From Deltaproteobacteria bacterium (GTDB lineage Bacteria > Desulfobacterota > GWC2-55-46): 64,000 nucleotides of DNA. Numbering within the stretch: the first letter of the stretch is position 1; the number at the start of each line of letters is the position of its first letter. Made by a program: the position numbers and the translations under genes. Shown here one piece after another: positions 1-14,338 of the stretch. The stretch spans positions 33,651 to 97,650 of the forward strand of contig JACRNO010000009.1 in NCBI GenBank assembly GCA_016234855.1, written 5' to 3'. The notes below the pieces were generated by a model. It was not told where the DNA came from. It worked only from the letters and a program-made list of their open reading frames with translations, and made no database searches.

Positions 1-153
1 CACGTGGTGGAGGGGTACAGGCTCACGATGCTCGCGGGCAGGCCGCCGGTCGTCAACGGACTTATTTATCTTGCGGTGGTCTCGGTGGTGACATTCGCCA
101 TGGGCGGCATATTTTTCAGGAGACTCAAGCCGGGGTTTGCAGAGGTGCTTTAA
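1..153 (+). CDS. wzm: ABC transporter permease Wzm (3' end only, partial)
   Basis: Frame 1 reads HVVEGYRLTMLAGRPP...GGIFFRRLKPGFAEVL*, the typical Wzm C-terminus; directly upstream of the Wzt ATPase. Confidence 0.8.
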   Translation, partial: HVVEGYRLTMLAGRPPVVNGLIYLAVVSVVTFAMGGIFFRRLKPGFAEVL

Positions 154-175
154 GCCGCGCTTAAAGAGACAGGAC

Positions 176-1498
176 ATGGAAATAGCAATCAGCGTAAAAA
201 ATATCAGCAAGAGCTACAGGCTCTATAAGGCCCCACCCGACAAGCTCAAGGAGATACTTAATCCGTTCGGCAGGAAGTATCACCAAGAGTTCCGCGCGCT
301 TAACGATGTTTCGTTCGAAATCAAAAAAGGCGAGAGCGTTGGCATAGTGGGCCGTAACGGCAGCGGCAAGTCGACGCTTTTAAAACTGATTTGCGGGGTT
401 CTTCAGCCAACGTCAGGAGAGGTCTCCGTGCAGGGCAGGGTCTCCGCGCTCCTTGAGCTTGGCGCCGGGTTCAACCAGGAATATACCGGCAGGCAGAACG
501 TCTATATGAACGGGGCGTTGAGGGGGCTGACAAAGGAGCAGGTCGATGAAAAACTAGAATCGATTCTCGATTTCGCCGATATCGGGGATTTTATCGACCA
601 GTCCGTCAAAACCTATTCAAGCGGGATGTACGTCAGGCTTGCCTTCTCATGCGCCGTAAATGTCGAGCCGGACATCTTGATAGTGGACGAGGCGCTTTCG
701 GTAGGGGATATAAGGTTTAAGCATAAGTGTTTCAGAAAGATAGAGAGTTTTAGAGAGGCCGGGAAGACTGTTTTGATGGTCACGCATGACATCGGGAGCG
801 TCAAGAGTTTTTGTGATAATGCCATATGGATAAACAACGGCAAGATTGAGCAAATCGGCAAAGCGGACGCTGTTGTCAGAGATTATTCTTCATTCATGAA
901 TTATGGTCTCGTATCAAAGGGTTCGGTGGCCCTGAAAGATACTAAAGCTCAACGCGGGAATGAAGTGTCCTTAGTTCAACGTGGGAATGAAGCGTCCTTT
1001 GACGCTGACATCCCATGGGAAGAAGTAAGCCATAGTTCTTCCTTTGGGGATGGCGGAGCAATAATCAAAAGGGTGGCCTTCTACGGCAAGGATGACTTTA
1101 AGAAGATCGCCATCCTTGAAGGCGGCGAGTCTGTGGTATTCTCGCTCGATATTGAAGTAAAAGAAGCGTTAGACATGCCAATTGTCGCTTGCAGATTGGA
1201 TAATAAATACGGTATGCATATTTTCGGGGTAAGCAATCTTACTGTCGGAGAAGAATTAAGGCCATTGAACGCTGGCGAGCGTGTAGTTGTAAATATCGAA
1301 TTTGTATTTCCTAAACTTGGGAATGGTCATTATGTTATTGCCGCTGCGATTGCTAATGGCACCAACCAAGCCCATGTACAACAGCATTTTGTGCATGAGG
1401 CGTATATTGTTCAAGTGATAAATCCATCAGTAGCGGCCAAAATGGGACATTGCATCGTACTCGAACAGACCTGGATATCGCTGATGGATTCAAAATGA
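176..1498 (+). CDS. wzt: Polysaccharide ABC exporter ATPase Wzt with C-terminal carbohydrate-binding domain
   Basis: Walker A GRNGSGKST, signature YSSGMYVRLAF, Walker B LIVDEALSVGD, Wzt_C-like C-terminal region (SFGDGGAII...); start chosen at ATG 176 after AGGA. Confidence 0.92.
   Translation: MEIAISVKNISKSYRLYKAPPDKLKEILNPFGRKYHQEFRALNDVSFEIKKGESVGIVGRNGSGKSTLLKLICGVLQPTSGEVSVQGRVSALLELGAGFNQEYTGRQNVYMNGALRGLTKEQVDEKLESILDFADIGDFIDQSVKTYSSGMYVRLAFSCAVNVEPDILIVDEALSVGDIRFKHKCFRKIESFREAGKTVLMVTHDIGSVKSFCDNAIWINNGKIEQIGKADAVVRDYSSFMNYGLVSKGSVALKDTKAQRGNEVSLVQRGNEASFDADIPWEEVSHSSSFGDGGAIIKRVAFYGKDDFKKIAILEGGESVVFSLDIEVKEALDMPIVACRLDNKYGMHIFGVSNLTVGEELRPLNAGERVVVNIEFVFPKLGNGHYVIAAAIANGTNQAHVQQHFVHEAYIVQVINPSVAAKMGHCIVLEQTWISLMDSK
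949..999 (+). repeat. 27-bp-period tandem duplication in Wzt linker (QRGNEVSLV-QRGNEASF)
   Basis: tcaacgcgggaatgaagtgtcctt (949-972) vs tcaacgtgggaatgaagcgtcctt (976-999), 22/24 identical. Confidence 0.8.
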
Positions 1499-1523
1499 CG
1501 GCAGATAGTAATCGGGTGCGGTA

Positions 1524-2102
1524 ATGGAAGACGGTAAACAAATTAAAACCACTTTGCGCATGCTTCATTCGGATAAGCCCAATATTGTCGTGGGGCGTTA
1601 TACCTACGGCAATCCTCTGCTTCTTACCTGGGCCGAAGATGAAAGGATAACTATCGGCGCATTCTGTTCTTTCGCCAGGGAGACGGCTGTCCTGGGGGGC
1701 GGGGAGCATCGATATGATTGGATTACCACGAGCCCGATCAGAATAATGTTTGACCTGCCTGGCGCAAGAAAAGACGGAATACCTTGCTCTAGAGGAGAAA
1801 CCGTAATTGGCAATGACGTATGGATGGGCTTCAGGTCCATTATATTATCCGGTGTGACCGTCGCGGATGGCGCTGTGATAGGGGCCGGCGCGGTAGTGGC
1901 TAACGACGTTCCGCCATATGCGGTGGTTGCCGGTAATCCTGCCAAGGTCATCAAATACCGTTTCGAAGAAAGCGTACGGAACGACCTTCTGAGCATAAAG
2001 TGGTGGGATTGGCCGATAGAAAAGATCATCGACAGCGTTGATCTCTTATGTTCGAATGACGCTGATGCCGTTAAGAAACTGATGGCTTTAAGTAGGTGTT
2101 GA
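1524..2102 (+). CDS. CatB/Vat-family hexapeptide O-acetyltransferase
   Basis: VGRYTYG, IGAFCSFA, IGNDVWMG, hexapeptide repeats GVTVADGAVIGAGAVVANDVPPYAVVAGNPAKVIKYRF, KWWDW. Confidence 0.88.
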   Translation: MEDGKQIKTTLRMLHSDKPNIVVGRYTYGNPLLLTWAEDERITIGAFCSFARETAVLGGGEHRYDWITTSPIRIMFDLPGARKDGIPCSRGETVIGNDVWMGFRSIILSGVTVADGAVIGAGAVVANDVPPYAVVAGNPAKVIKYRFEESVRNDLLSIKWWDWPIEKIIDSVDLLCSNDADAVKKLMALSRC

Positions 2103-2156
2103 TTGCAGCGAATTCCCATGCCGTCATAACCGTTTAAAAAGCATTTAAGGAAGAAT

Positions 2157-3833
2157 ATGCACCAGAGCTCGTTTGATAAGATGTCGAAATTCCGGGAGAC
2201 ATACCTGGCCGGCCGGGAACGGGAACCGTTGTTGATATTAGATCTCGGGAGCATGGATGTAAACGGCTCATACCGGCCTCTTTTTGTTTCTGATTCATGG
2301 CAGTATAAGGGCATTGACCTGGCGGAAGGAAGAAACGTAGATATCGTCCTTCCTAATCCCTACGACTGGACAGGGATTGAGTCCACCTCGGTTGATGTCG
2401 TGGTATCAGGACAGGCATTCGAGCATATAGAATACTTCTGGCTTACGATGCTTGAGATAGCAAGGGTCTTAAAGCCTGGCGGCTTGTGCTGCATTATCGC
2501 CCCTTCAGGCGGTTTCGAGCACAGGTACCCGGTAGATTGCTGGAGGTTCTATTCCGACGGATTCTCTGCGCTCGGTCGTTTTGCAGGGTTGGAGGTGCTG
2601 GATGCTTATACGCAAAAAGAGAATCTCGGCTACAAGGATGACAGCGATACATGGAAGGATTCGGTAATAATCTGCAGGAAACCGGCCCGCCCGCTCGAAC
2701 AAGCGGGCCTCTCGCAATTCAACAGGGATATCCTGATAGAGGCTTACAAAGTGACGGTTGCCGATGCTGGCCAGCCGTTAAAGGTCGATTTTAATCCTAT
2801 CGAACATCCGCGCTCCTTTTTTGAGGAACCCCAGAAGCTCTCTGACATAGCAAGCTGGCATGAGCACATGCCGTTTGCCTTTTTAGTAATGGATATTCTC
2901 AAGCCGAGGGTTTTTGTGGAGCTTGGCGTCCATAAAGGAGATTCATATCTCGCGTTTTGTCAGGCCGTTAAAAATTTCGGCATTGATGCAAAGTGCCACG
3001 GCGTGGACACCTGGAAAGGCGAGGAGCATGCTGGGTTCTATGACGAGAGCGTTTATAATCAGTTGACAGCTTATCACGACCCGTTATATGGAAATATCTC
3101 AACACTTTTGAAGATGACTTTCGATGAGGCGCTTGCAAAATTTGCCGATAAGAGCATCGACCTGTTACATATCGACGGTCTGCACAGTTACCAGGCCGTT
3201 AAGCACGATTTTGAAGCATGGCTTCCGAAGATGAGCGATTCAGGCGTAATTCTTTTTCATGATACGAATGTCCGCGAACGCGACTTCGGGGTCTGGAGGC
3301 TCTGGTATGAGATAAAAGATAAGTATCCGAGCATGGAATTCAAGCATGGGCATGGGCTTGGCGTGCTTGCGGTTGGGCGAAGCCTGCCGCAGGATTTCGT
3401 TGATATGCTTGCCGCCGGCAAGGTCGATAACTCGGCGCTATTGCACTTGATGTATTTGCTGGGTTCGCGTAACTCTCTTAAGTATACTGTTGCCTCCAGG
3501 GACAGGGAGTTAGTCTCTTTCAGGGAAAAGTCAACTGCGCTTGAGAATAGATTGAAGGCCGAGGAAGAGAAGGCAAGGAACAAGGACAAGGAGATAGCCT
3601 CTTTTAGAGAAAAGTCCAATATGCTTGAGAGCCAACTTAAGGCATCGGAAGAGAAGATTAAGGCAGGGGAAGAGAGGACAAGGAACAAGGACAGGGAAAT
3701 AGCATCGTTAAGAGAAAAGTCCAAAGCGCTCGAAAATAGGCTGACTGATATCCTGCATAGCAAGAGTTGGCAGGTTACCGTTCCGCTAAGGGCCGTTGGC
3801 GGGCTTTTTACGAGGAAGCCGGCAAAACGCTGA
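2157..3833 (+). CDS. Two-domain SAM methyltransferase with coiled coil and C-terminal SxSWxVTxPLR helix (WbdD/WsaE-like chain terminator candidate)
   Basis: Domain 1 LDLGSMDVNG...QAFEH...RVLKPGG; domain 2 FVELGVHKGDS, DTWKGEEHAG, DLLHIDGLHSY, ILFHD (Methyltransf_24-like); heptad repeats; SKSWQVTVPLR. Confidence 0.8.
   Translation: MHQSSFDKMSKFRETYLAGREREPLLILDLGSMDVNGSYRPLFVSDSWQYKGIDLAEGRNVDIVLPNPYDWTGIESTSVDVVVSGQAFEHIEYFWLTMLEIARVLKPGGLCCIIAPSGGFEHRYPVDCWRFYSDGFSALGRFAGLEVLDAYTQKENLGYKDDSDTWKDSVIICRKPARPLEQAGLSQFNRDILIEAYKVTVADAGQPLKVDFNPIEHPRSFFEEPQKLSDIASWHEHMPFAFLVMDILKPRVFVELGVHKGDSYLAFCQAVKNFGIDAKCHGVDTWKGEEHAGFYDESVYNQLTAYHDPLYGNISTLLKMTFDEALAKFADKSIDLLHIDGLHSYQAVKHDFEAWLPKMSDSGVILFHDTNVRERDFGVWRLWYEIKDKYPSMEFKHGHGLGVLAVGRSLPQDFVDMLAAGKVDNSALLHLMYLLGSRNSLKYTVASRDRELVSFREKSTALENRLKAEEEKARNKDKEIASFREKSNMLESQLKASEEKIKAGEERTRNKDREIASLREKSKALENRLTDILHSKSWQVTVPLRAVGGLFTRKPAKR
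3498..3743 (+). repeat. Three coiled-coil repeats (28- and 35-aa spacing)
   Basis: RDRELVSFREKSTALENRL / KDKEIASFREKSNMLESQL / KDREIASLREKSKALENRL. Confidence 0.85.
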
Positions 3834-3966
3834 ATATTTTGGACACGGTCGTTTCCCACGTCATGCCGTGCCTTCGTTTGAGCAAACGCGGCGAATTTTG
3901 CCGCCGGGCCGTTTGCAAAAAAAAATGTGATATGACGCAGCCGGATAGATAAGGAGCTTGTAGGCA

Positions 3967-6900
3967 ATGAAGTCGATTTTGCGCAACGTGATGGGCATAT
4001 TCAAAACCTATGACTTCAGTCAGGCCATCCCTAATATCAGGAGGTACGGCCTTGGCGCGTTTTTGAGGAATACCGCGTATGAACTGAGGAGAAAGGAGGC
4101 GCCAGGTTACGCGGCAAGACAGCCTGAAAGGTTGAGGCCGGAGCCGCCGGTGTCTGCGTCTGTTGAGTTTGTCGCGGATAGTGAGTCCGGATATGTGTTC
4201 GGGGAATTATCGGAAAGAATTGCAGAAGAGCGCGCAAAGGTACTCGGCGGCATCAATCCCAAGCCTAAGGACCTTATAACAGTCAATGAATCCGAGCTCG
4301 TTTCCGTCGCTGGAAGTATCCGTTTTAAGGATGTGAACGAGCCGCTCGTATCCATAATCATTCCGGCGATGAACGATGCAAGGCTTACCGTTGAATGTCT
4401 CCTCTCGGTCGAAAAATTCACAAAAACCGTTCCTTATGAAGTGATTGTCGTTGATGATGGCTCTTCAGACCGCACCGGCGATATCATTTCAAGGATTAAG
4501 AATATCACCTGCACAAGAAATCCGGGGCTCATTGGCTATGCGCGCTCCTGCAACAAGGGCGCTGATATTGCAAAGGGAAAGTATCTTGTCTTTCTGAACA
4601 GCCGCATGCAGGTGACGCAGGGCTGGCTCACGGAGCTTGTCGGCACATTTGAAGGACGCTCCTCGGTCGGGGCGGCGGGGGCGAAGATAGTTAATCCTAA
4701 CGGCAGGCTGCAGGAGGTTGCGGTCGTCATAAACCACGACCGCACGATGCAGCCCGTCGGCAGGATGGATGACCCCGATCTGCCGAGATACAGTTATGTC
4801 AGAGAGGTGGACTTTTGCTCAGGAGCTTGTCTTGCCGTGGAGGCGGAGCAGTTTCGCGCCGTCGGCGGCTTTGCAGGCCGTTTTGCGCCTGGTTATCTGG
4901 AGGACGCCGATTTGCAAATGAGGTTGAGAGAAAAGGGGTTGCGCATATTCAGCAACCCGGGTTCCGTAGTAATACATAATATCGCCGCCGCGTCCAGCGG
5001 GACGGATGAGCCATCGAGCGCTCCGGATACTTCGCTGAAACTTTCCGTAAAATGGCACAAGCAGGTTGATGAACTGAATAAAATCCGCCTGATAGCCTTA
5101 TATCTTCCCCAATTCCATCCGATACCGGAAAATGACCGTTGGTGGGGCAGGGGCTTTACCGAATGGCGCAATGTGGCCCGCGCGCAGCCGGTTTATGAAG
5201 GGCACTATCAGCCGCACTTGCCCGCGGACCTGGGTTTTTACGACCTTCGCGTCCCGGAGGTCATGGAAGAGCAGGCCGCGTTGGCCAAAAGATACGGTCT
5301 CCACGGCTTTTGTTTTTATTATTACTGGTTTGCCGGCAAACGTCTGTTAGAGATGCCGTTGGAAAGGATGCTCGAGACAGGCAGGCCCGACATCCCCTTT
5401 TGTCTGTGCTGGGCTAACGAGAATTGGACGCGCAGGTGGGACGGGAGCGAGCAGGAAATTCTCATGAAGCAGGAGCATTCCGAGAAACACGACCACGACG
5501 TCATAATGGACGTTGGTCGTTACCTGCGCCATAAAAATTACATCAAGGTAAACGGCAAACCCGCCTTCCTCGTTTATCGCATAGGCCTCTTCCCGGATAT
5601 CAAACGGACGACCGATATCTGGCGTGATGTCTGCCGCAGAGAGGGCATCGGTGAAATATATCTTGTGATGGTGGAGTCTTTCGAGCACTCCACCGCTGGA
5701 GCGGACCCGTCGCAGTACGGCTTCGATGCTTCCATGGAATTTCCGCCGCATCAGATACCTGCGGTGACAGTCAAGCCGGGCAAGATAATTAATCCGAATT
5801 TTACCGGAGTAATCTACGATTATCGCGATGTCGCTTTGAAGTATATGAGCAAGAAGGCCCCTGGCCATAAGCGGTTTCGCGGCGTGATAATGTCATGGGA
5901 CAATACTGCCCGCAGGCCTAATAATTCTCACATCTTCGCGCACTCCTCGCCTGAGGTCTATCAGGAATGGCTGGAAGGGGCTATTGCGCATACGCGGGAA
6001 CAGAACAGCGCGGAAGAGCGCATCGTTTTCATAAACGCGTGGAACGAATGGGCTGAAGGCGCTCATCTGGAGCCTGACCAGCGTTTCGGGCACGGGTATC
6101 TGAAGGCGACGAACAACGCCCTTTCCAGATATTCGCCCAAGCCCTTGATAATCGTGGTCACGCATGACGCTCATTTTCATGGGGCGCAACTGCTGGCGCT
6201 GAAAATCGTAGAGGCCTTATCAATATCTCTCGGTTGCGAGGTAGTCACTCTGTTGGCCGGCCCCGGTGTTCTGGAAGGGGAATTTGCAAGATATTCAACC
6301 ACGTTTAAGATCTATTCCATGACGGATGGAGAAAAGTCGGATTGCATCAAGGAGCTTTACCTTAAAGGTGTTAGAGAGGCTATTTGCAATACGAGCGTCG
6401 TGGGCGATATCACCGAACTGCTTGCGTCAGAAGGGTTCGAGACGGTGAGCCTTGTCCATGAATTAACGGATTACATAACGGCCAACGGGCTTGAAGGTTC
6501 GCTGAGGAAGGAATTTCAATATTCCAAAAAGGTTATCTTTCCAGCCGGTTATTGCAAGAAAGCCTTCATGGCAAAATTCGATCTGGATTACAATAAGGCG
6601 CTTGTCAGGCCGCAAGGCATCTATAACAAGAATCGTTATCTGTCCCGCAGAGACGAGGCACGCGCGATCGTGAGAAAAAGGCTCAACCTGCCTGCAAGCG
6701 CGAAGATAGTCCTTAATATCGCTTTTGGTGACAGCAGGAAAGGCCTGGATATCTTTGTGAAGACCGGTCTTGAATTGATTGAAAGGTTTGAGAACGTGTA
6801 TTTTGTTTGGATAGGGCATTATGATGAGAGGCTTTTTAACAGCGTATCCGGTTTGATCAGCAAGCACGGGAGGCAGAGGCACTTCTTATTCCCCGGTCTG

Positions 6901-8160
6901 CAAAAGGAAATTGACCTGTACTATTCCGGCTCCGACGTCTTCTTCCTCTCATCGAGGGAGGATCCCTTCCCAGCGGTCGTGCTGGATGCGATGAACGCGG
7001 GCCTGCCGGTTGTGGGTTTTGAAGGCGCTGGAGGATTTTGTGAGATTCTTCAAAATCAAAACGGCGTTACGGTCCCTGCATTTGACGAGGCCGCAGCGGC
7101 GAATGCCATTGAAAAACTTCTGAGCGACGCGGATTATCGCGCTTTGATATCCTCGAACGCGGTCAATGCCGTTGCGAGAGATTACGGCTTTAACGAATAC
7201 GTCTCTTTCTTATTGGGTACGCTTCGCGAAAAAAAAAAGATATCCGTAATCATACCGAGTTATAATTACGAACGATATATAGAAGCAAGGTTGAATACCG
7301 TAATCAACCAGACATACAAACCTTATGAGATCATATTTCTTGACGACGCTTCGACGGATAACAGCCTGGAGCGGGCGAGAAGGGTGCTTGAGCGGTCGGA
7401 CGTGCCTTTCAGGATTATAGAATCTACGGGCGGCAATAGCGGTTGTTACGCCCAGTGGCTCAAGGGCATACGCGCCGCCGGCGGAGAGTTGATATGGATT
7501 GCCGAGTCGGACGATTTGTGCGAGTTGGATTTCCTGGAGAAGATGGCGGGGGCGTTTAACGATTCTGACGCCGTGCTGGCGTATTCGCAGTCGCAGGTCA
7601 TAGACGAGAACTCCAATAAGCTCGATGTTACGTATGTGAAGTATACGAACGATATCTCGGAATCGAAATGGAGGTCCAGTTATGTCGAGGACGGCGGAAA
7701 GGAGATAGCAACCGCTCTTGCCATAAAGAATACAATCCCGAACGTCAGCGCGGTCCTTATGCGGAAAGATATCCTCGACAAGGTCGGGCCTGACCTGCTG
7801 AAGTTCAAGACAAGCGGCGATTGGTTCGTTTATGTATCGATGCTGAAGCATGGAAAGGTATATTTCAATTCCGCGGTTTTAAACTATCACAGAAGGCACT
7901 CTTCCAGTATAATCCACAGGAATATCAAGAATTGGGACCTTGTGATGGAGAATATAACGATTCTTGAAGGCGTGCTCTCTGAGTTTCGGTTGCCGCGGGA
8001 GTCGTTTGAGAAGGCCATTAAAAATATTGAGTATGTCTATGGCTTGATGGGCACGGATGCCCGCTCTATCCTCGAGGACCCTGTTATCAAGGATAGGGTG
8101 AAAGGGCTTTATAATATGTATGATGAGGCGAAAAAACGTATGCCGGGCCGCGGCGAGTAG
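3967..8160 (+). CDS. Multidomain glycosyltransferase: GT2 + WbsX/GH99-like + GT4 + GT2
   Basis: VSIIIPA...VIVVDDGSSD; LIALYLPQFHPIPENDRWWGRGFTEW...INAWNEWAEGAHLEPD; SSREDPFPAVVLDAMNAGLPVV; ISVIIPSYNY...FLDDASTD...IAESDD. Confidence 0.88.
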   Translation: MKSILRNVMGIFKTYDFSQAIPNIRRYGLGAFLRNTAYELRRKEAPGYAARQPERLRPEPPVSASVEFVADSESGYVFGELSERIAEERAKVLGGINPKPKDLITVNESELVSVAGSIRFKDVNEPLVSIIIPAMNDARLTVECLLSVEKFTKTVPYEVIVVDDGSSDRTGDIISRIKNITCTRNPGLIGYARSCNKGADIAKGKYLVFLNSRMQVTQGWLTELVGTFEGRSSVGAAGAKIVNPNGRLQEVAVVINHDRTMQPVGRMDDPDLPRYSYVREVDFCSGACLAVEAEQFRAVGGFAGRFAPGYLEDADLQMRLREKGLRIFSNPGSVVIHNIAAASSGTDEPSSAPDTSLKLSVKWHKQVDELNKIRLIALYLPQFHPIPENDRWWGRGFTEWRNVARAQPVYEGHYQPHLPADLGFYDLRVPEVMEEQAALAKRYGLHGFCFYYYWFAGKRLLEMPLERMLETGRPDIPFCLCWANENWTRRWDGSEQEILMKQEHSEKHDHDVIMDVGRYLRHKNYIKVNGKPAFLVYRIGLFPDIKRTTDIWRDVCRREGIGEIYLVMVESFEHSTAGADPSQYGFDASMEFPPHQIPAVTVKPGKIINPNFTGVIYDYRDVALKYMSKKAPGHKRFRGVIMSWDNTARRPNNSHIFAHSSPEVYQEWLEGAIAHTREQNSAEERIVFINAWNEWAEGAHLEPDQRFGHGYLKATNNALSRYSPKPLIIVVTHDAHFHGAQLLALKIVEALSISLGCEVVTLLAGPGVLEGEFARYSTTFKIYSMTDGEKSDCIKELYLKGVREAICNTSVVGDITELLASEGFETVSLVHELTDYITANGLEGSLRKEFQYSKKVIFPAGYCKKAFMAKFDLDYNKALVRPQGIYNKNRYLSRRDEARAIVRKRLNLPASAKIVLNIAFGDSRKGLDIFVKTGLELIERFENVYFVWIGHYDERLFNSVSGLISKHGRQRHFLFPGLQKEIDLYYSGSDVFFLSSREDPFPAVVLDAMNAGLPVVGFEGAGGFCEILQNQNGVTVPAFDEAAAANAIEKLLSDADYRALISSNAVNAVARDYGFNEYVSFLLGTLREKKKISVIIPSYNYERYIEARLNTVINQTYKPYEIIFLDDASTDNSLERARRVLERSDVPFRIIESTGGNSGCYAQWLKGIRAAGGELIWIAESDDLCELDFLEKMAGAFNDSDAVLAYSQSQVIDENSNKLDVTYVKYTNDISESKWRSSYVEDGGKEIATALAIKNTIPNVSAVLMRKDILDKVGPDLLKFKTSGDWFVYVSMLKHGKVYFNSAVLNYHRRHSSSIIHRNIKNWDLVMENITILEGVLSEFRLPRESFEKAIKNIEYVYGLMGTDARSILEDPVIKDRVKGLYNMYDEAKKRMPGRGE

Positions 8161-8202
8161 CATGATCGTTATCGTTACGCATAATATTATTCGGGTGTCT
8201 AT

Positions 8203-9129
8203 ATGAAGGGTCTGATTTTGGGAGGCGGAGGCTTTATCGGCTCGCACATATGCGACGCGCTTGTCGCCGAAGGCTGGGAAGTGGGGGTCTTTGAGCGTCC
8301 GTTCAGGCTCAGCGACAACGTCGCGCATTTGAAGGGCCGCATCTCGTGGTTCGAGGGTGATTTCTCGAACAGCAGCGATATCGCCTCGGCGCTCGAGGGC
8401 GTAGACGTCGTTTTTCATCTGATAAGCACCACGATACCGAAGACCTCGAATGAGAACCCGCTCTACGATCTCACGTCGAACGTATGCGCGACGCTCTCGT
8501 TCCTGAACGAGGCGGTCAGGGCCGGGGTAACGAAGGTAGTATTCATGTCTTCAGGCGGCACCGTATATGGGATACCTGCGCGGATTCCCATACCGGAGAG
8601 CCATCCGACCGAGCCGGTTTGCGCGTACGGGATACACAAACTGGCCATAGAAAAGTATCTGGCCCTGTATAGCAGGAACTACGGGCTCGATTACGCGGTC
8701 ATAAGGCTGTCGAACCCCTACGGGCCGAGGATGAACCCGTTGTCTGCCCAAGGCGCCATACCGGTCTTTATGTACCGGGCTTTGAAGGGGCAAACCATAG
8801 AGATATGGGGCGACGGCTCGATAGTGCGCGATTATCTGTATATAACGGACGTGGCGCGGGCGGTATGCGCGCTTGCCACGTATTCGGGCGGTGAAAAGAT
8901 ATTCAATATTGGCAGCGGCGTCGGCATGTCCTTGAATGACGTGCTCAAGGGGATAGAGGATGTGATAGGCGAGAAGCTCGATATCCGGTACACCGAAAGC
9001 CGCAAATTCGACGTTCCGGCAAACGTGCTTGATATTACGAGAGCCATGAACGAGATTGCATGGACTCCACAGATAGCCTTCAAGGAAGGCTTGAGAAGGA
9101 CGTGTGATTTCCTGAAGGCTCAGCCATAG
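8203..9129 (+). CDS. NAD-dependent epimerase/dehydratase (extended SDR)
   Basis: LILGGGGFIGSH, SSGGTVYG, YGIHK (YxxxK), RLSNPYG, IWGDGSIVRDYLY. Confidence 0.9.
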   Translation: MKGLILGGGGFIGSHICDALVAEGWEVGVFERPFRLSDNVAHLKGRISWFEGDFSNSSDIASALEGVDVVFHLISTTIPKTSNENPLYDLTSNVCATLSFLNEAVRAGVTKVVFMSSGGTVYGIPARIPIPESHPTEPVCAYGIHKLAIEKYLALYSRNYGLDYAVIRLSNPYGPRMNPLSAQGAIPVFMYRALKGQTIEIWGDGSIVRDYLYITDVARAVCALATYSGGEKIFNIGSGVGMSLNDVLKGIEDVIGEKLDIRYTESRKFDVPANVLDITRAMNEIAWTPQIAFKEGLRRTCDFLKAQP

Positions 9130-9260
9130 CGTTAAGAAGGAAGAAAAGCTGTATCGCTGGTGTGGGAATATCAGCCAGCCAGGCGTAAGCGCTTGAAGCA
9201 ATTCGCCGACGGGTTATCGGTAATTAGCTGTACGATGACAAGGCATGAAAGGAGAAGGAT

Positions 9261-10103
9261 GTGTCTAACAGAGACGTTATAGCCCATTTGTTGAGGCGGC
9301 CGCTGGCCTGGGCCAGGAGGCTGGAGATGTTTGTGCCGCTGGGGTTGCGTCAGGCTGGTAAAGGCAAGACGTCACAAAAAGATGGAATCAAGGCAGAGCC
9401 GTCTCTGAAGACCAATCCGGGTTTTTGTCCGATATGTGAGAAAGAGACCGAGTTCGTAGAAAGACATGAATGGTTGCGAGACCATTATCTTTGCGCAAGA
9501 TGCAAGTCGATACCGAGAAATAGGGCGCTTATCCATGTGCTCGGCATGATATTTCCGGATTGGAGAGACGCGAAAATCCATGAATCGTCGCCGAGCGGCC
9601 CTGCTTCGGCCAAGCTTCAAAGAGAATGCAAAGATTACACGCCGCCGCATTTCTGGCCGAACGTTAAACCCGGTGATTCTAAATACGGCATACGCTGCGA
9701 GAACCTGGAGCAGATGACCTTTGCCGACAATACCTTTGACCTGATGATTACCCAGGACGTTATGGAGCATATCCTTAACCCCGTAAAGTCGTTCTCCGAT
9801 ATTGCAAGGATCTTGAAGCCTGGCGGCGCTCATGTCTTTACCGTGCCGTATTACTATTGGAAGCCTACCCTCATAAGGGCGGTTGAGACGCCTGACGGTA
9901 TAAAATATCTTGAAGAGAAGCAATTTCACGGAAATCCGGTGGACAAGGAAGGCTCGCTCGTCGTGACTGAATGGGGCCCGGATTTTGTGGACAGGATCTA
10001 CCGGGAGAGCAAGATGACGACAGCCATTTATCACATAAAAGACCGCAGCCTCGGCATTGACGGAAAGTTTCTTGAGGTTTTTGTGAGCAGGAAGCCGTTA
10101 TAA
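9261..10103 (+). CDS. Class I SAM-dependent methyltransferase with N-terminal CxxC...CxxC
   Basis: CPICE...CARCKSIPRNR, ENLEQMTFADNTFDLMITQDVMEH, RILKPGGAHVFTVP; GTG start after AGGAG. Confidence 0.8.
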   Translation: MSNRDVIAHLLRRPLAWARRLEMFVPLGLRQAGKGKTSQKDGIKAEPSLKTNPGFCPICEKETEFVERHEWLRDHYLCARCKSIPRNRALIHVLGMIFPDWRDAKIHESSPSGPASAKLQRECKDYTPPHFWPNVKPGDSKYGIRCENLEQMTFADNTFDLMITQDVMEHILNPVKSFSDIARILKPGGAHVFTVPYYYWKPTLIRAVETPDGIKYLEEKQFHGNPVDKEGSLVVTEWGPDFVDRIYRESKMTTAIYHIKDRSLGIDGKFLEVFVSRKPL

Positions 10104-10167
10104 CGCGGTTGCGGCGGATTTAGTATCTTGTCCAACGTTATGAGTAAGAAAAATCCCGGAGGCAGCT

Positions 10168-11063
10168 ATGAGAGGCGATTTTCAAAACATATTAGATGAG
10201 ATAAAGGCTGGGCATAAGGAAGGCTCGAACATTAAAGAGCTTTTTCACAAGACAAGCGATGAGTTCTGGTTTTGGGCTCATACTGAAGGCTATCGCAACA
10301 ATCAATGGCTCCGCGAGATTCTGCCCGGTCTGCCTGATGAGCAGCTTCAGAGCAATATACGGGGGCGAGCGGCGACAGGGCGCTCGAAAAGGCATTTGCC
10401 ATCTATTCTCTTTTTAAAAAGAATGCCATTGATATTCAGGGCGCTTTGCAAGACGGCGTGCTCGACTTTGGTTGCGGCTGGGGCAGGATACTCAGGTTTT
10501 GGCTGAAGGATTTTGAGGCTGATCATGTGTGGGGCGTAGACGTTCAGAAAGAGGCCGTAGATATATGTGAGGGTTTGGCGTTCCCTTGTAACCTTAAACA
10601 AATTCCGTCAGGCCCGCCAGTTGACCTGCCGGCTGATAAATTTGGCCTGATATATGCGTTTTCAGTTTTTTCACATCTTTCGCCTGAAGCGGCGGACGCG
10701 TGGGTAGCGGAATTCCATCGTATTCTAAAGCCTGGCGGAACAGCTATGCTCTCGACGCGTCCACGTTCTTTTATCGAGATGGTAGGAAATGCAAGGAAGA
10801 TGAACCCTGCGCCGGAATGGACAAAACGCATTGTTCATCACTTCCAGGATGAAAACAAATGGCTTTCCCGTTACAATGCAGGAGAGTTCTGTTTTGAGCC
10901 GGTTGGTTTAGGCGGAGACCCCAGCAAGTCATTCTACGGTGAAGCCGTCATTCCAAAGGATTACGTTGTCAAGCATTGGGCAGGGAGTAAATTCCGGCTT
11001 TGCGCATTTCTTGCCGGAGACCGGCTTGTAGAACAAAACATAATTATACTCCAAAAAAAATAG
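10168..11063 (+). pseudogene. Class I SAM methyltransferase split by a 1-nt deletion near 10354-10365
   Basis: Frame 1 ...LPGLPDEQLQSN continues sensibly in frame 3 (YT)GASGDRALEKAFAIYSLFKK...VLDFGCGWGRILRF...YAFSVFSHL...RILKPGG; frame 3 has a TGA at 10338 so it cannot extend to the 10168 start. Confidence 0.8.
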
Positions 11064-11079
11064 GGCTTCGGGGGTAATA

Positions 11080-12093
11080 ATGGACACACCGCTTCACGGA
11101 CAAGAAGAAAAACCAGATCGCCATATCGACGGGCCCATAATCGTATACCAGATGGGCAAGGTCGGTTCGAGGAGCGTATTCGAGACGCTTGAGAAACTGA
11201 ACCTCGGCATTCCCGTTTATCATTGTCATGTTCTGCATGACCTGGATAAGATAGCGGAACAGCTAAAAAAGCAATTTGATAACCCGTTTGATTCATTGGC
11301 GGTAGTAAGACAAGGCAAAGACTTGAGGAAATTGATAGATGAGGCCCCTGCCAAGCCCTGGCATGTGGTATCTCTCGTCCGTGACCCGATTGCGCAGACC
11401 ATATCGAGGTTTTTTCAGAGCATAGAGGAGGTTATCCCGAATGCCGGACGAAGATTCAAGGACGGCGCGCTTAACGTGGAGGACCTTTTCAGCGCCTTTG
11501 AGAAAAAGTGGATTCTCAATGACCCGGCCCTTATCTGGTTTGACAATCAGTTCAAGCCTGTCTTTGATATAGATGTATACGAGAGACCGTTCCCGTGCGC
11601 AAAAGGCTATGACATATTCAGGAAAGGCCGTTTTTCTTTGTTGTTATTCAGGCTTGAAGACCTCGACGGGTGCGCGCCGCAGGCCTTTGAGGAGTTTTTC
11701 GGCTTGGCGGACTTCAAGTTGATGAAGGCAAACGAGGCGGCCAATAAATGGTACCAGGGGCTGTATAAGGAATTCATCTCGAAGATAGACCTGTCGAAAG
11801 ATTATCTGGACAAGGTATATGGCTCCAAGTTCAGCAGGCATTTTTATACAAAGCTGGAGATCAACGCTTTCCGGGCAAAGTGGACGCGCAAGCCGGCGGT
11901 TGGCGCATCTTCAGCAGGCGTTAACAAGGCTGCGGATTTGAAGAGCGGGGGACTGGAAAGGAAGGACTCTGAGATTGCAGGATTAAGGAAGATGATAGAT
12001 GCGAAGGAGCGCGAGATAGCCGCGTTGCGCAACAGCTTGAGCTGGAAGGTCACGGCTCCGCTGAGGGCCGTCGGGGGGATATTCATGAAGTGA
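11080..12093 (+). CDS. NKWYS-type putative capsular polysaccharide synthesis protein (sulfotransferase-like) with short coiled coil and SxSWKVTAPLR tail
   Basis: YQMGKVGSRS, SLVRDPIAQTISRFFQ, ANEAANKWYQGLY, YGSKFSRHFYT; tail LRNSLSWKVTAPLRAVGG. Confidence 0.72.
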   Translation: MDTPLHGQEEKPDRHIDGPIIVYQMGKVGSRSVFETLEKLNLGIPVYHCHVLHDLDKIAEQLKKQFDNPFDSLAVVRQGKDLRKLIDEAPAKPWHVVSLVRDPIAQTISRFFQSIEEVIPNAGRRFKDGALNVEDLFSAFEKKWILNDPALIWFDNQFKPVFDIDVYERPFPCAKGYDIFRKGRFSLLLFRLEDLDGCAPQAFEEFFGLADFKLMKANEAANKWYQGLYKEFISKIDLSKDYLDKVYGSKFSRHFYTKLEINAFRAKWTRKPAVGASSAGVNKAADLKSGGLERKDSEIAGLRKMIDAKEREIAALRNSLSWKVTAPLRAVGGIFMK

Positions 12094-12229
12094 AAGCGGC
12101 GCTAGTCTCCGGACTTCTTTCGCACCCGGTCTCGTTTGAGATAGATTTGAGAGAATGGATCTTTTGTGGCGCGTGAAGGAGTCGCAGTCCAACCAACCCG
12201 AAGGCGCATTTTTTTGGCGCAAAGCCTTT

Positions 12230-13135
12230 ATGTCCACTTCAACATACATTATCGTCCTTAACTGGAACGGTGTAGATGACACCATTGAGTGCATACAATC
12301 CCTAAAAAAGATGACGTATCGGGATTATGCGATTCTCCTCGTCGATAACGCTTCGACGGACGGCTCGGTCGCTGTTTTAAGCAAAAAGTTCCCGGAAATA
12401 AAGATTATCGAGGCCCATAAAAATCTCGGGTTTGCGGGAGGCGCCAATCTTGGCATGAGGCACGCCTTGAGCGCGGGCGCGCAATATCTCATACTCCTGA
12501 ATAACGATACGGTCGTTGCCCCTGATTTTGCCGGTGAACTCGTGAAAGCCGCTGAGAACGATAAAAAAGCGGGAATACTCTCTTCCAAGGTATATTTTTA
12601 TGACAGGCCGGGCGTGCTCTGGTATGCCGGAGCAAGTTTTAACAGGTGGCTTGGATGGGGCAGGCACAGGGGTTTTGGTTCAATGGATATCGGACAATTT
12701 GACAGGCTTGAACCGACCGGCCGGCCTTGCGGCTGTGCGCTATTGGCAACAAGGGAATTCTGCGAGAAGGCCGGACTTCTTGAAGAGGAATACTTTTGTT
12801 ACTGCGAGGATATGGAGTGGGGGATGAGGGCAGGGAATCTTGGGTATGCGACGCTCTTTGTTCCATCTTCAAAGGTATGGCATAAGGTCTCAAGGTCGAC
12901 AGGCGGCCCTGCAACCGCAAAGGCGCTCTATTATTCCGTGAGAAATACCTTAAAGTGTCTTGATACTGACGCTCCGCTGCCGTTTGGCCTGCGTCATATC
13001 AGGATATTGCTTGTGTTGGTAATTAGCATTTTAAGTCTTTTTACGATGAATATCCCGAAGGTCCTGGGGCTTAAACGAATTTTTCATGGCGTCATGGATT
13101 ATTTAGAAGGTAAGTTTGGCGAACTCGTAGAATAA
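12230..13135 (+). CDS. GT2 glycosyltransferase (rhamnosyltransferase-like)
   Basis: IIVLNWNG, LVDNASTDGS, NLGFAGGANLG, LLNNDT, YCEDMEWGMR, VWHKVSRS; start chosen at MSTSTY. Confidence 0.88.
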   Translation: MSTSTYIIVLNWNGVDDTIECIQSLKKMTYRDYAILLVDNASTDGSVAVLSKKFPEIKIIEAHKNLGFAGGANLGMRHALSAGAQYLILLNNDTVVAPDFAGELVKAAENDKKAGILSSKVYFYDRPGVLWYAGASFNRWLGWGRHRGFGSMDIGQFDRLEPTGRPCGCALLATREFCEKAGLLEEEYFCYCEDMEWGMRAGNLGYATLFVPSSKVWHKVSRSTGGPATAKALYYSVRNTLKCLDTDAPLPFGLRHIRILLVLVISILSLFTMNIPKVLGLKRIFHGVMDYLEGKFGELVE

Positions 13136-13150
13136 TTGAATCTCTGCTCA

Positions 13151-13281
13151 ATGAAGATACTTGTGGCGGGGCCGGGTTTATCGGCGCGCACGTCTGCAAG
13201 GCGCTTGCCGCGCGGGGTTACGAGCCTGTGGTCTTCGATAACCTTGTTTTCGGTCCCGCTTGTGTGCAGGCGTTCTTATGA
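13151..13281 (+). pseudogene. galE: Frameshifted, truncated 5' remnant of UDP-glucose 4-epimerase
   Basis: ATG AAG ATA CTT GTG then shifted frame GAGFIGAHVCKALAARGYEPVVFDNL, stop at 13279-13281; matches the GalE N-terminus. Confidence 0.75.
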
Positions 13282-13336
13282 AACGAGTTGCGCTTTTTCC
13301 GGCGTTGCGGCATATATGCGGGCCGTAAAAGTTTAA

Positions 13337-14338
<1,002 letters not shown>

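Follow-up and report, generated by a model that had tools for sequence, protein, structure and literature searches.

An NKWYS-family protein from an ABC-transporter-dependent glycan cluster as a candidate PAPS-dependent sulfotransferase with a coiled-coil tail

Does the NKWYS-family gene of this glycan cluster encode a sulfotransferase and, if so, where on the glycan would the sulfate be placed? The stretch of DNA analysed here (64,000 nucleotides, hereafter the window) carries the gene in a cluster with rml/gmd/manC, Wzm/Wzt and glycosyltransferase genes. A preliminary description had presented its product as a candidate glycan sulfotransferase of a family to which no activity is assigned. 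In agreement with this statement, our search of the literature turned up no relevant paper on NKWYS, on PF10364 or on chain termination by sulfate in bacteria. 'Putative capsular polysaccharide synthesis protein' is to date the family's sole annotation; in NCBI nr one tandem-domain relative is labelled 'sulfotransferase family 2 domain-containing protein'. The PF10364 profile matches ~6,000 clusters at 50% identity, in Chloroflexota, Cyanobacteria, Planctomycetota, Proteobacteria and others.

The NKWYS gene (11080..12093; this and all other features located below lie on the + strand) has an ATG start codon, with a GGGGG ribosome-binding site upstream of it. As judged by the ORF, Pfam, an AlphaFold (AF2) model and fold matches, it encodes a protein of 337 aa composed of a predicted sulfotransferase-fold catalytic domain (aa ~16-270), a linker and a helical tail. 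The Pfam PF10364 match (E 6.6e-28, 97.8 bits for a cut-off of 25.1) is restricted to aa 135-257 and leaves the N-terminal half of the protein uncovered. No Rfam match was found in the window.

The three motifs quoted in the preliminary description are all present in this ORF. Conservation was scored in 57 relatives (34-77% identity); in relatives at 31-59% identity, too, the motif residues varied little or not at all. In the 5'-phosphosulfate-binding (PSB) loop YQMGKVGSRS (aa 23-32, 11146..11175), position 27 is a lysine in 55/57 relatives, and G29 and S30 are present in all. In the 3'-phosphate-binding (3'-PB) motif LVRDPIAQTISRF (aa 99-111, 11374..11412), every relative has R101 and P103, and 50/57 have S109. 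Between them lies H48-x-H50 (11221..11229), where H50 is found in 57/57 and H48 in 52/57 relatives. In a wider and more diverse set (n=96), H50 and P103 remained invariant, with K27, G29, S30, R101 and S109 at least 90% conserved. NKWY is indeed present (aa 222-225, 11743-11754), but of its residues only K223 and Y225 are conserved (53/57 each), N222 and W224 being poorly kept (10/57 and 11/57, respectively). It lies inside a wider family signature, N218-x4-K223-x-Y225-x3-Y229 (11731..11766), whose outer positions N218 and Y229 are each found in 56/57 relatives and which possibly contacts the nucleotide or the acceptor. On these conservation counts, the motifs are more than chance resemblances.

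In the AF2 model (pLDDT 86.6), the PSB loop consists of a strand (20-23), a loop (24-29) and a helix (30-39) with the conserved Lys and Gly, and the 3'-PB motif of a strand (94-100) followed by a helix (103-113) with the conserved Arg and Ser. Such strand-loop-helix and strand-turn-helix elements are hallmarks of polysaccharide sulfotransferases (PMC11625862). H50, a candidate catalytic base at the end of strand 46-49, is positioned between the two motifs like the His of cytosolic enzymes. A fold other than that of a P-loop sulfotransferase, named in the preliminary description as a refutation, was not the outcome of two fold searches. In a Foldseek-independent search of 48,161 chains, PAPS sulfotransferases of many families took all of the first 21 places (Z 6.5-8.8, with 7.9-8.5 to HS3ST5, NST and HS2ST), and nucleotide kinases ranked beneath them (Z 5-6.5). 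In a second-look fold alignment, the best 50 were again all sulfotransferases (Z 8.0-9.4, 153-188 residues aligned), a Z of 8-9 being middling in absolute terms. Most of these sulfotransferase matches had an rmsd of 3.5-4.7, and 153-195 residues were aligned. With Foldseek, no PDB entry matched at E <= 0.001 and the best was Teg12 (E 2.7e-3); the weak matches were mostly sulfotransferases.

At the sequence level, searching PDB chains directly with the protein yielded noise only, and profile searches gave marginal matches to solved sulfotransferases, confined to the 3'-PB motif. The family profile aligned this stretch with the corresponding motif of heparan sulfate 3-O-sulfotransferase 3A1 (HS3ST3A1, E 0.009). 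Profile matches to engineered OspA repeats and to a dynein chain were discarded as spurious. No Pfam sulfotransferase family matched the NKWYS protein itself, Sulfotransfer_2 (PF03567) being absent even at E 10. In 18/57 relatives, PF03567 matched at E < 1, N-terminal to the NKWYS match, and its cut-off of 22 bits was exceeded by P0071 (25.4), P0022 (31.6) and P0205 (24.6). Comparison by hhalign of the family alignment with five Sulfotransfer_3 domains from fusion proteins detected no relation (probability 0.4%), the alignment being too small and Sulfotransfer_3 too distant.

A sulfotransferase of this type would need PAPS. The absence of PAPS synthesis genes from the window, pointed out earlier, was borne out: the sole match for APS kinase and ATP sulfurylase in the genome is a fused Sat-CysC on another contig, C38. 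Sat-CysC adjoins a CysH-type reductase gene and is therefore not dedicated to sulfation. A clear APS kinase was found in 44 of 50 NKWYS-bearing genomes, but such a co-occurrence says nothing, since the base rate was already high (11 of 14 control genomes). PAPS genes were not enriched near NKWYS genes, with an APS kinase by 1 of 79 NKWYS loci. One locus of an Acidobacteriota genome (L071) carries an operon sulfotransferase-sulfotransferase-cysD-cysNC with the NKWYS gene last.

The surrounding cluster is devoted to glycan assembly and export. A Wzm permease gene lies just upstream of the window and is followed by a Wzt ABC-transporter ATPase gene (137..1498; ABC_tran E 3e-25) whose product ends in a Wzt_C carbohydrate-binding domain (E 6.8e-24). 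A dual methyltransferase of 558 aa (2157..3833; Pfam Methyltransf_24 and Methyltransf_11), with a ~90-aa coiled coil (match at 449-531), is a second candidate terminator, and a 1397-aa multi-module glycosyltransferase (3967..8160; Pfam GT2, WbsX, GT4, GT2) is the candidate polymerase. Directly upstream of the NKWYS gene is a class I methyltransferase gene by Pfam (10168..11063), apparently frameshifted near 10356-10374. The relative P0015, in which a class I methyltransferase is fused in frame to the NKWYS domain, matched this gene by tblastn in two frames.

PAPS-motif conservation, the predicted fold, Sulfotransfer_2 matches in relatives, the genomic PAPS supply and the gene context together support the sulfotransferase reading well. 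We consider PAPS-dependent sulfotransferase chemistry very likely for the NKWYS protein and, with slightly less assurance, expect the enzyme to act on the glycan of its own cluster. The earlier proposal of a glycan sulfotransferase is to this extent upheld.

Where the sulfate would go is addressed by the C-terminal part of the protein. The 'terminator-like tail' of the preliminary description is real as a coiled-coil tail of the protein, but not as a transcription terminator, since no intrinsic terminator was found 3' of the gene. A C-terminal helix (aa 292-323, 11953..12048) is predicted as a short coiled-coil-like stalk (AF2 pLDDT 74-89, with a weak Pfam coiled-coil match at 292-320). Our crude heptad scanner was not relied on for counts, as it was over-permissive when loose and missed obvious helices when strict. 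The helix is followed by the tail motif SWKVTAPLRAVGGIF(MK) (12040..12090), a putative docking or membrane-proximal element. This motif recurs at the end of the dual methyltransferase (SWQVTVPLRAVGGLF, 3765-3809) and in no other long ORF of the 2.3 Mb genome. The two tails are identical at 22/43 positions (E 2e-13), and the DNA of the two regions is likewise similar. A shared docking element for the two enzymes is thus suggested by their sequences. Complex prediction with the NKWYS tail (aa 283-337) and the dual methyltransferase tail (aa 430-558), run without controls, returned no answer (score 0.00) and is evidence neither way.

In other genomes, NKWYS domains are fused to WbsX (repeatedly), RgpF, GT4, methyltransferase or Sulfotransfer_3 modules. 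A genome of the same family (G056) encodes, within a Wzm-Wzt(Wzt_C) operon, a 680-aa protein in which GT2 is followed by an 86-residue helix made up of QLAEKEK repeats and then by NKWYS; apart from this helix, its single-sequence model is poor (pLDDT 40.6). By analogy with known terminators, this layout would put NKWYS in the terminator position. Wzt has a C-terminal extension of 160-225 aa in 18 of 22 other Wzt-bearing NKWYS loci, and Wzt_C was detected in 5/5 tested.

Terminal sulfation, as first proposed, would fit the Wzt_C-bearing exporter, the coiled-coil tail and the fusion of GT2, helix and NKWYS in the related genome, and capping by the NKWYS protein is plausible. The proposal has to be shared, however, with a second candidate terminator in the cluster: with ~90 residues of coiled coil as against a helix of ~30, the dual methyltransferase is the more classical terminator. 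It also speaks against a cap role that just 2/123 close relatives have the tail of the NKWYS protein. The substrate would be an undecaprenol-linked glycan assembled by the cluster in the cytoplasm. PAPS, the presumed donor, would be held between the K27/G29/S30 loop (5'-phosphosulfate) and the R101/S109 strand-turn-helix (3'-phosphate), and H50 would deprotonate a sugar hydroxyl for in-line attack on the sulfur. The ~30-residue helix and the SWKVTAPLRAVGG motif may anchor the enzyme to the membrane or the assembly complex, at the same site as the dual methyltransferase. The sulfate, probably together with O-methylation, would then cap the non-reducing end and stop polymerisation, and the cap would be read by the Wzt_C domain prior to export. 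As a whole (a PAPS-dependent O-sulfotransferase acting on the lipid-linked glycan of its cluster, tethered by its tail and placing a terminal cap), we hold this proposal tentatively, at a little under even chances; that sulfate forms part of the terminal cap we judge marginally more doubtful still.

The same chemistry might instead be directed at internal repeat units or side branches, the tail keeping the enzyme by the polymerase and the dual methyltransferase alone capping the chain. We give this reading a substantial minority of our belief, and sulfation within the chain is nearly as likely as sulfation at its end. It would fit the shortness of the stalk (helix 292-323) compared with that of the dual methyltransferase, and the majority of the family, which are stand-alone proteins of ~280 aa without a stalk. 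Tandem double-NKWYS proteins also exist, and several large fusions, ordered Sulfotransfer_3, helix, WbsX, RgpF, NKWYS, carry NKWYS at the polymerase end and a canonical Sulfotransfer_3 at the stalk end. Against it are the G056 fusion, with the domain at the place of the terminators, the tail motif common to the terminator-like methyltransferase, and the strong association with Wzt_C-bearing exporters.

Less of the evidence agrees with a sulfotransferase-like fold put to another reaction, either as an ATP phosphotransferase or kinase, or as a sulfotransferase for a non-glycan acceptor (lipid or small molecule), which we consider improbable. The core fold is common to nucleotide kinases (Z 5-6.5), and a kinase could, jointly with the adjacent methyltransferase, produce a phospho or methyl-phospho cap like WbdD of E. 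coli O9a; the methyltransferase-NKWYS fusion of P0015 recalls such kinase-methyltransferase terminators. However, the loop is of the K-x-G-S sulfotransferase type and not a Walker A GxxxxGK[ST], the R-x-P-x5-S 3'-phosphate motif, specific to PAPS binders, is conserved, the best fold matches are sulfotransferases throughout and the gene context is wholly that of glycan assembly. A catalytically dead scaffold or adaptor, whose tail and fold would organise the assembly complex, is very improbable in our estimate: the tail does suggest a structural contact, but thousands of relatives keep the putative catalytic and cofactor residues with little or no variation, which is unexpected for a pseudoenzyme.

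New here are the NKWYS family as sulfotransferase candidates and the split arrangement in which two enzymes carry a common tail. With NKWYS assigned to the PAPS-sulfotransferase fold, thousands of genes acquire a testable function, and many environmental bacteria are flagged as probable producers of sulfated surface glycans, which matter for carbon and sulfur cycling in marine waters and groundwater and are of interest as bioactive polymers. Methyl, methyl-phosphate and Kdo are the caps known in the polymerase-terminator paradigm. A chain-end sulfate cap, if real, would be a new chemical 'stop and export' signal, and would account for orphan sulfotransferase genes beside wzt, for example in Aeromonas salmonicida. 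In the broadest claim, which is unlikely, sulfate would be a cap not described before that ends the chains of ABC-transporter-dependent bacterial glycans and licenses their export. In this lineage it would be installed by NKWYS as an unrecognised ninth sulfotransferase family, and the cap machinery would be split between two enzymes with one docking tail and stalks of unequal length, providing two rulers per polymerase complex.

Among known systems, the PAPS-binding core matches that of Sulfotransfer_1/Sulfotransfer_2 polysaccharide sulfotransferases, among them the heparan sulfate 3-O- and 2-O-sulfotransferases: it has their K/G PSB loop and R/S 3'-PB strand-turn-helix, and H50 is the candidate counterpart of their His or Glu base (PMC11625862). 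The NKWYS protein is nevertheless <20% identical to these enzymes, bacterial and cytoplasmic with a putative lipid-linked glycan substrate, and falls outside the eight Pfam sulfotransferase families of that review (PMC11625862). Its C-terminal half, with the NKWYS signature, has no described counterpart in known polysaccharide sulfotransferases. In mammals, 3-O-sulfation of the terminal glucuronic acid of matriglycan by HNK-1 sulfotransferase reportedly stops further extension by LARGE. The likeness is in sulfate as a chain-end mark; HNK-1 sulfotransferase is a eukaryotic Golgi enzyme with neither a coiled-coil ruler nor an export checkpoint.

PAPS-dependent sulfation of bacterial surface glycans is documented for NodH and LpsS of Sinorhizobium and KpsS of Mesorhizobium loti (PMC11625862). 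In A. salmonicida, an unexplained small sulfotransferase-domain gene (ORF19) lies between wzt and wbbB, although the O-antigen repeat showed no sulfate (PMC4483657), which would be the expected picture of a single terminal sulfate. These four proteins belong to Sulfotransfer_1 or Sulfotransfer_3, in contrast to NKWYS here, and none has been reported with a coiled-coil tail or a docking motif common to another enzyme.

The closest parallels in architecture are the chain terminators. In WbbB (K. pneumoniae O12) and ORF6 (K. pneumoniae O7), terminator, coiled coil and glycosyltransferase polymerase are on one polypeptide, as in the G056 protein, where the modifying module is also at the far end of the helix; the terminator module is a Kdo transferase or a methyltransferase-kinase rather than a sulfotransferase-fold domain, and in our window the modules are on separate proteins. 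WbdD (E. coli O9a/O8, the same as K. pneumoniae O3/O5) is a stand-alone chain terminator with a coiled-coil ruler; its partners are a multi-module polymerase on another protein and a Wzt bearing a cap-reading carbohydrate-binding module (PMC11231755). The NKWYS cluster likewise has a separate multi-module polymerase and a Wzt with Wzt_C, and the NKWYS protein resembles WbdD in its order of N-terminal catalytic domain, coiled coil and (putative) C-terminal docking region. Unlike the NKWYS protein with its PAPS-sulfotransferase fold, WbdD uses a protein-kinase-like domain and/or a methyltransferase, and the NKWYS stalk, in contrast to that of WbdD, is of ~30 residues. Whereas WbdD is bifunctional, the cluster described here carries one tail on two separate enzymes, one sulfotransferase-like and the other a dual methyltransferase.

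The NKWYS ORF (11080-12093, + strand) opens with an ATG preceded by GGGGG and encodes a protein of 337 aa. The three motifs quoted in the preliminary description, YQMGKVGSRS, LVRDPIAQTISRF and NKWY, were all located in it, at aa 23-32, 99-111 and 222-225, respectively. The Pfam NKWYS model (PF10364) matched with E 6.6e-28. Since this match is confined to aa 135-257, the two motifs cited as 5'-phosphosulfate-binding (PSB) loop and 3'-phosphate-binding (3'-PB) element fall in the N-terminal half, outside the model. The protein itself matched no sulfotransferase family in Pfam and gave no match in NCBIfam. A literature search for NKWYS or PF10364 found no relevant mention, and automatic cluster names still read 'putative capsular polysaccharide synthesis protein'.

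The family is large: a word-indexed search retrieved 555 relatives, and 5,998 (E <= 0.001) came from a full HMM search across 1.8 billion cluster representatives. Conservation was tallied in two alignments, of 57 relatives and of 96 more diverse sequences. H50 and P103 are invariant in both. G29, S30 and R101 are invariant among the 57 and conserved at 90% or more in the 96, a level also reached there by K27 (K in 55 and R in 2 of the 57) and S109 (S in 50 of the 57); residue 32 is S or T in 54 of the 57. Judged from these alignments, the putative PSB and 3'-PB motifs exceed chance. Within 'NKWY' only K223 and Y225 are conserved among the 57 relatives, and the true family signature reads N218-x4-K223-x-Y225-x3-Y229. 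Tandem arrangements of two NKWYS domains are frequent, chiefly in Chloroflexota, in proteins of 550-590 aa (P0002, P0004, P0007 and others).

A confident AlphaFold2 model built from the 57-sequence alignment (mean pLDDT 86.6, pTM 0.78) places the first motif in a strand (20-23), loop and helix (30-39), and the second in a strand (94-100), turn and helix (103-113). In polysaccharide sulfotransferases, the hallmark is the presence of both elements around a central sheet, the first with the catalytic Lys and a Gly, the second with a Ser, together with a His or Glu base (PMC11625862). Foldseek alone gave weak matches, the majority to sulfotransferases (best Teg12, E 2.7e-3). In an independent structural search of 48,161 PDB representatives, the top 21 were all sulfotransferases, drawn from many families (SULT7A1, StaL, HS3ST5, NST, HS2ST, Stf9, TPST, the olefin synthase sulfotransferase domain and Stf0), nucleotide kinases ranking only beneath them; Z-scores were 6.5-8.8 there and 8.0-9.4 for the best 50, again all sulfotransferases, of the 60 chains at Z >= 8 in a second-look alignment, values which are middling in absolute terms. 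The case for the fold comes from the uniform hit list and the placement of the motifs, rather than from the size of the Z-scores. The first residues aligned are 16-17 in the model and 37-38 in SULT1A1; without gaps from there on, K27 would fall in register with Lys48, the PSB-loop lysine of SULT1A1. The predicted fold may extend to giant viruses and phages: in the ESM Atlas, hypothetical-protein clusters from Nucleocytoviricota and Uroviricota resemble the catalytic domain (TM 0.69-0.70 over ~220-230 residues).

Links to known families were also found among the relatives. Matches at E < 1 to Sulfotransfer_2 and Sulfotransfer_1 occurred in 18 and 5 of the 57, respectively, and three proteins (P0071, P0022 and P0205) surpassed the Sulfotransfer_2 gathering score directly N-terminal of their NKWYS match. 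The 3'-PB stretch of the 96-sequence profile aligned to the counterpart motif of heparan sulfate 3-O-sulfotransferase 3A1 (E 0.009), and profile positions 47-154 aligned weakly to HS3ST5 (E 0.29). One tandem-domain relative is named 'sulfotransferase family 2 domain-containing protein' in NCBI nr. Taken together, sulfotransferase chemistry is very probable.

As to the sulfate donor, the window holds no PAPS synthesis genes, as had been stated, and the genome's copy, a 570-aa PUA/ATP-sulfurylase/APS-kinase fusion, was found on another contig (C38). A CysH-type reductase ~3 kb from it and sulfite reductase genes elsewhere in the genome imply a supply of PAPS or APS that is shared with assimilation, not a dedicated one. 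A clear APS kinase is present in 44 of 50 other NKWYS-bearing genomes versus 11 of 14 controls, and because the controls have it too this co-occurrence is compatible with the proposed activity but weak. Only one of 79 loci has an APS kinase within 10 kb of NKWYS, and its gene order is telling: in an Acidobacteriota MAG (L071:5092-10882, +), two Sulfotransfer_1/3 genes are followed by cysD, a cysN-cysC fusion and NKWYS, then a transposase.

The surrounding cluster is of the ABC-transporter-dependent polymerase-terminator type. The rml genes and Wzm lie upstream of the window, which continues with Wzt (Wzt_C), a hexapeptide acyltransferase, a dual methyltransferase with a long coiled coil (2157-3833, +, 558 aa), a 1397-aa protein with GT2, WbsX, GT4 and GT2 modules, an epimerase, two methyltransferases and NKWYS; GT2, Gmd, a Rmd/Fcl-like reductase, GT4, GT2 and ManC follow. 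Immediately upstream of NKWYS, the gene for a class I methyltransferase (10168-11063) is split over two frames, with a switch near 10356-10374 adjoining a G5 run (10361-10365), either a true frameshift or an assembly error. G+C is 0.49-0.53 over 1-14000 versus 0.56-0.63 in the remainder, and just 2 of the 41 related genomes have NKWYS; both observations point to a variable surface-glycan island subject to lateral exchange. The product is likely, but not certainly, LPS O-polysaccharide: the genome has LpxB (E 6e-95) as well as four Wzy_C hits resembling O-antigen ligases, one of which a stop codon interrupts. A match to LpxC (PF03331) is missing, probably because the assembly is incomplete (95%). 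The NKWYS protein probably acts on the glycan of this cluster.

Family-wide, Wzt lies within 10 kb of NKWYS at 22 of 79 reference-genome loci; 18 of these 22 Wzt carry a C-terminal extension of 160-225 aa, and Wzt_C was detected in all five tested. Fusion partners of NKWYS domains are WbsX, RgpF, GT4, class I methyltransferase and canonical Sulfotransfer_3 modules. The upstream methyltransferase is itself an in-frame NKWYS fusion in P0015 (588 aa, 58% identical), from a Wzm/Wzt_C cluster, and the locus of the closest relative also has a Gal-3-O-sulfotransferase-family gene.

In the model, the NKWYS C-terminus consists of a low-confidence linker, a helix (292-323) and SWKVTAPLRAVGGIF; that of the dual methyltransferase is a coiled coil of ~90 residues followed by SWQVTVPLRAVGGLF. 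Aligned with each other, the two tails agree at 22 of 43 positions (E 2e-13) and are similar in DNA, and no other long ORF of the genome bears the motif. The same tail-bearing pair occurs in the closest relative's locus. Among 123 relatives, the tail was found in this protein and P0003 only; the close relative P0011 has instead an N-terminal hydrophobic segment and a Q-rich helix. A sulfatase/alkaline-phosphatase-superfamily protein (L005:4326-5903, +) ends with a coiled-coil-like stretch and a similar tail, SKSWRLTYPIR. The motif thus appears to be a portable tag on varied modifying enzymes ahead of a WbsX polymerase.

In terminators, the catalytic module sits at the distal end of a coiled-coil ruler; the C-terminal region of WbdD has an amphipathic membrane helix and a polymerase recruitment site, the Wzt carbohydrate-binding module reads the cap, and the caps described so far are methyl, methyl-phosphate and Kdo (PMC11231755). 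The strongest support for such a role of NKWYS comes from a genome of the same taxonomic family (G056), whose operon comprises, in this order, Wzm, Wzt(Wzt_C), Sulfotransfer_1, a methyltransferase, DegT, a 680-aa protein, three GT4 and an epimerase. In the 680-aa protein (L086:10133-12172, -), a helix with heptad repeats of QLAEKEK/QLAEKDT links GT2 to NKWYS, and the sole confident part of the single-sequence model is an 86-residue helix (328-413). The composition of these repeats resembles a single stable alpha-helix as much as a classical coiled coil.

In the window itself the NKWYS stalk is short and a longer-stalked methyltransferase is at hand, which argues against a cap. Four large metagenomic fusions (P0135, P0157, P0199 and P0228) carry a canonical Sulfotransfer_3 domain, a helical spacer, WbsX (+/- RgpF) and a C-terminal NKWYS, with an amphipathic 'S..W....LR'-like segment between spacer and WbsX. 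By these domain matches, a single polymerase-like protein would contain two sulfotransferase-fold domains of different kinds, the canonical one on the stalk side and NKWYS on that of the polymerase, again against a cap. Sulfation within the chain is an alternative almost as probable as a terminal cap. The preliminary interpretation is therefore supported in part: the sulfotransferase reading stands with good confidence, and addition of a terminal cap is to be held only tentatively.

In the O-antigen cluster of Aeromonas salmonicida, an unexplained gene for a sulfotransferase-domain protein of 216 aa separates wzt from wbbB, although the repeat unit has no reported sulfate (PMC4483657); a single terminal sulfate that went unnoticed would fit these data. 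New here are NKWYS as a putative second sulfotransferase-fold family at Wzm/Wzt, beside the canonical stalked sulfotransferases, and a split arrangement in which one tail is common to two enzymes, NKWYS and the dual methyltransferase.
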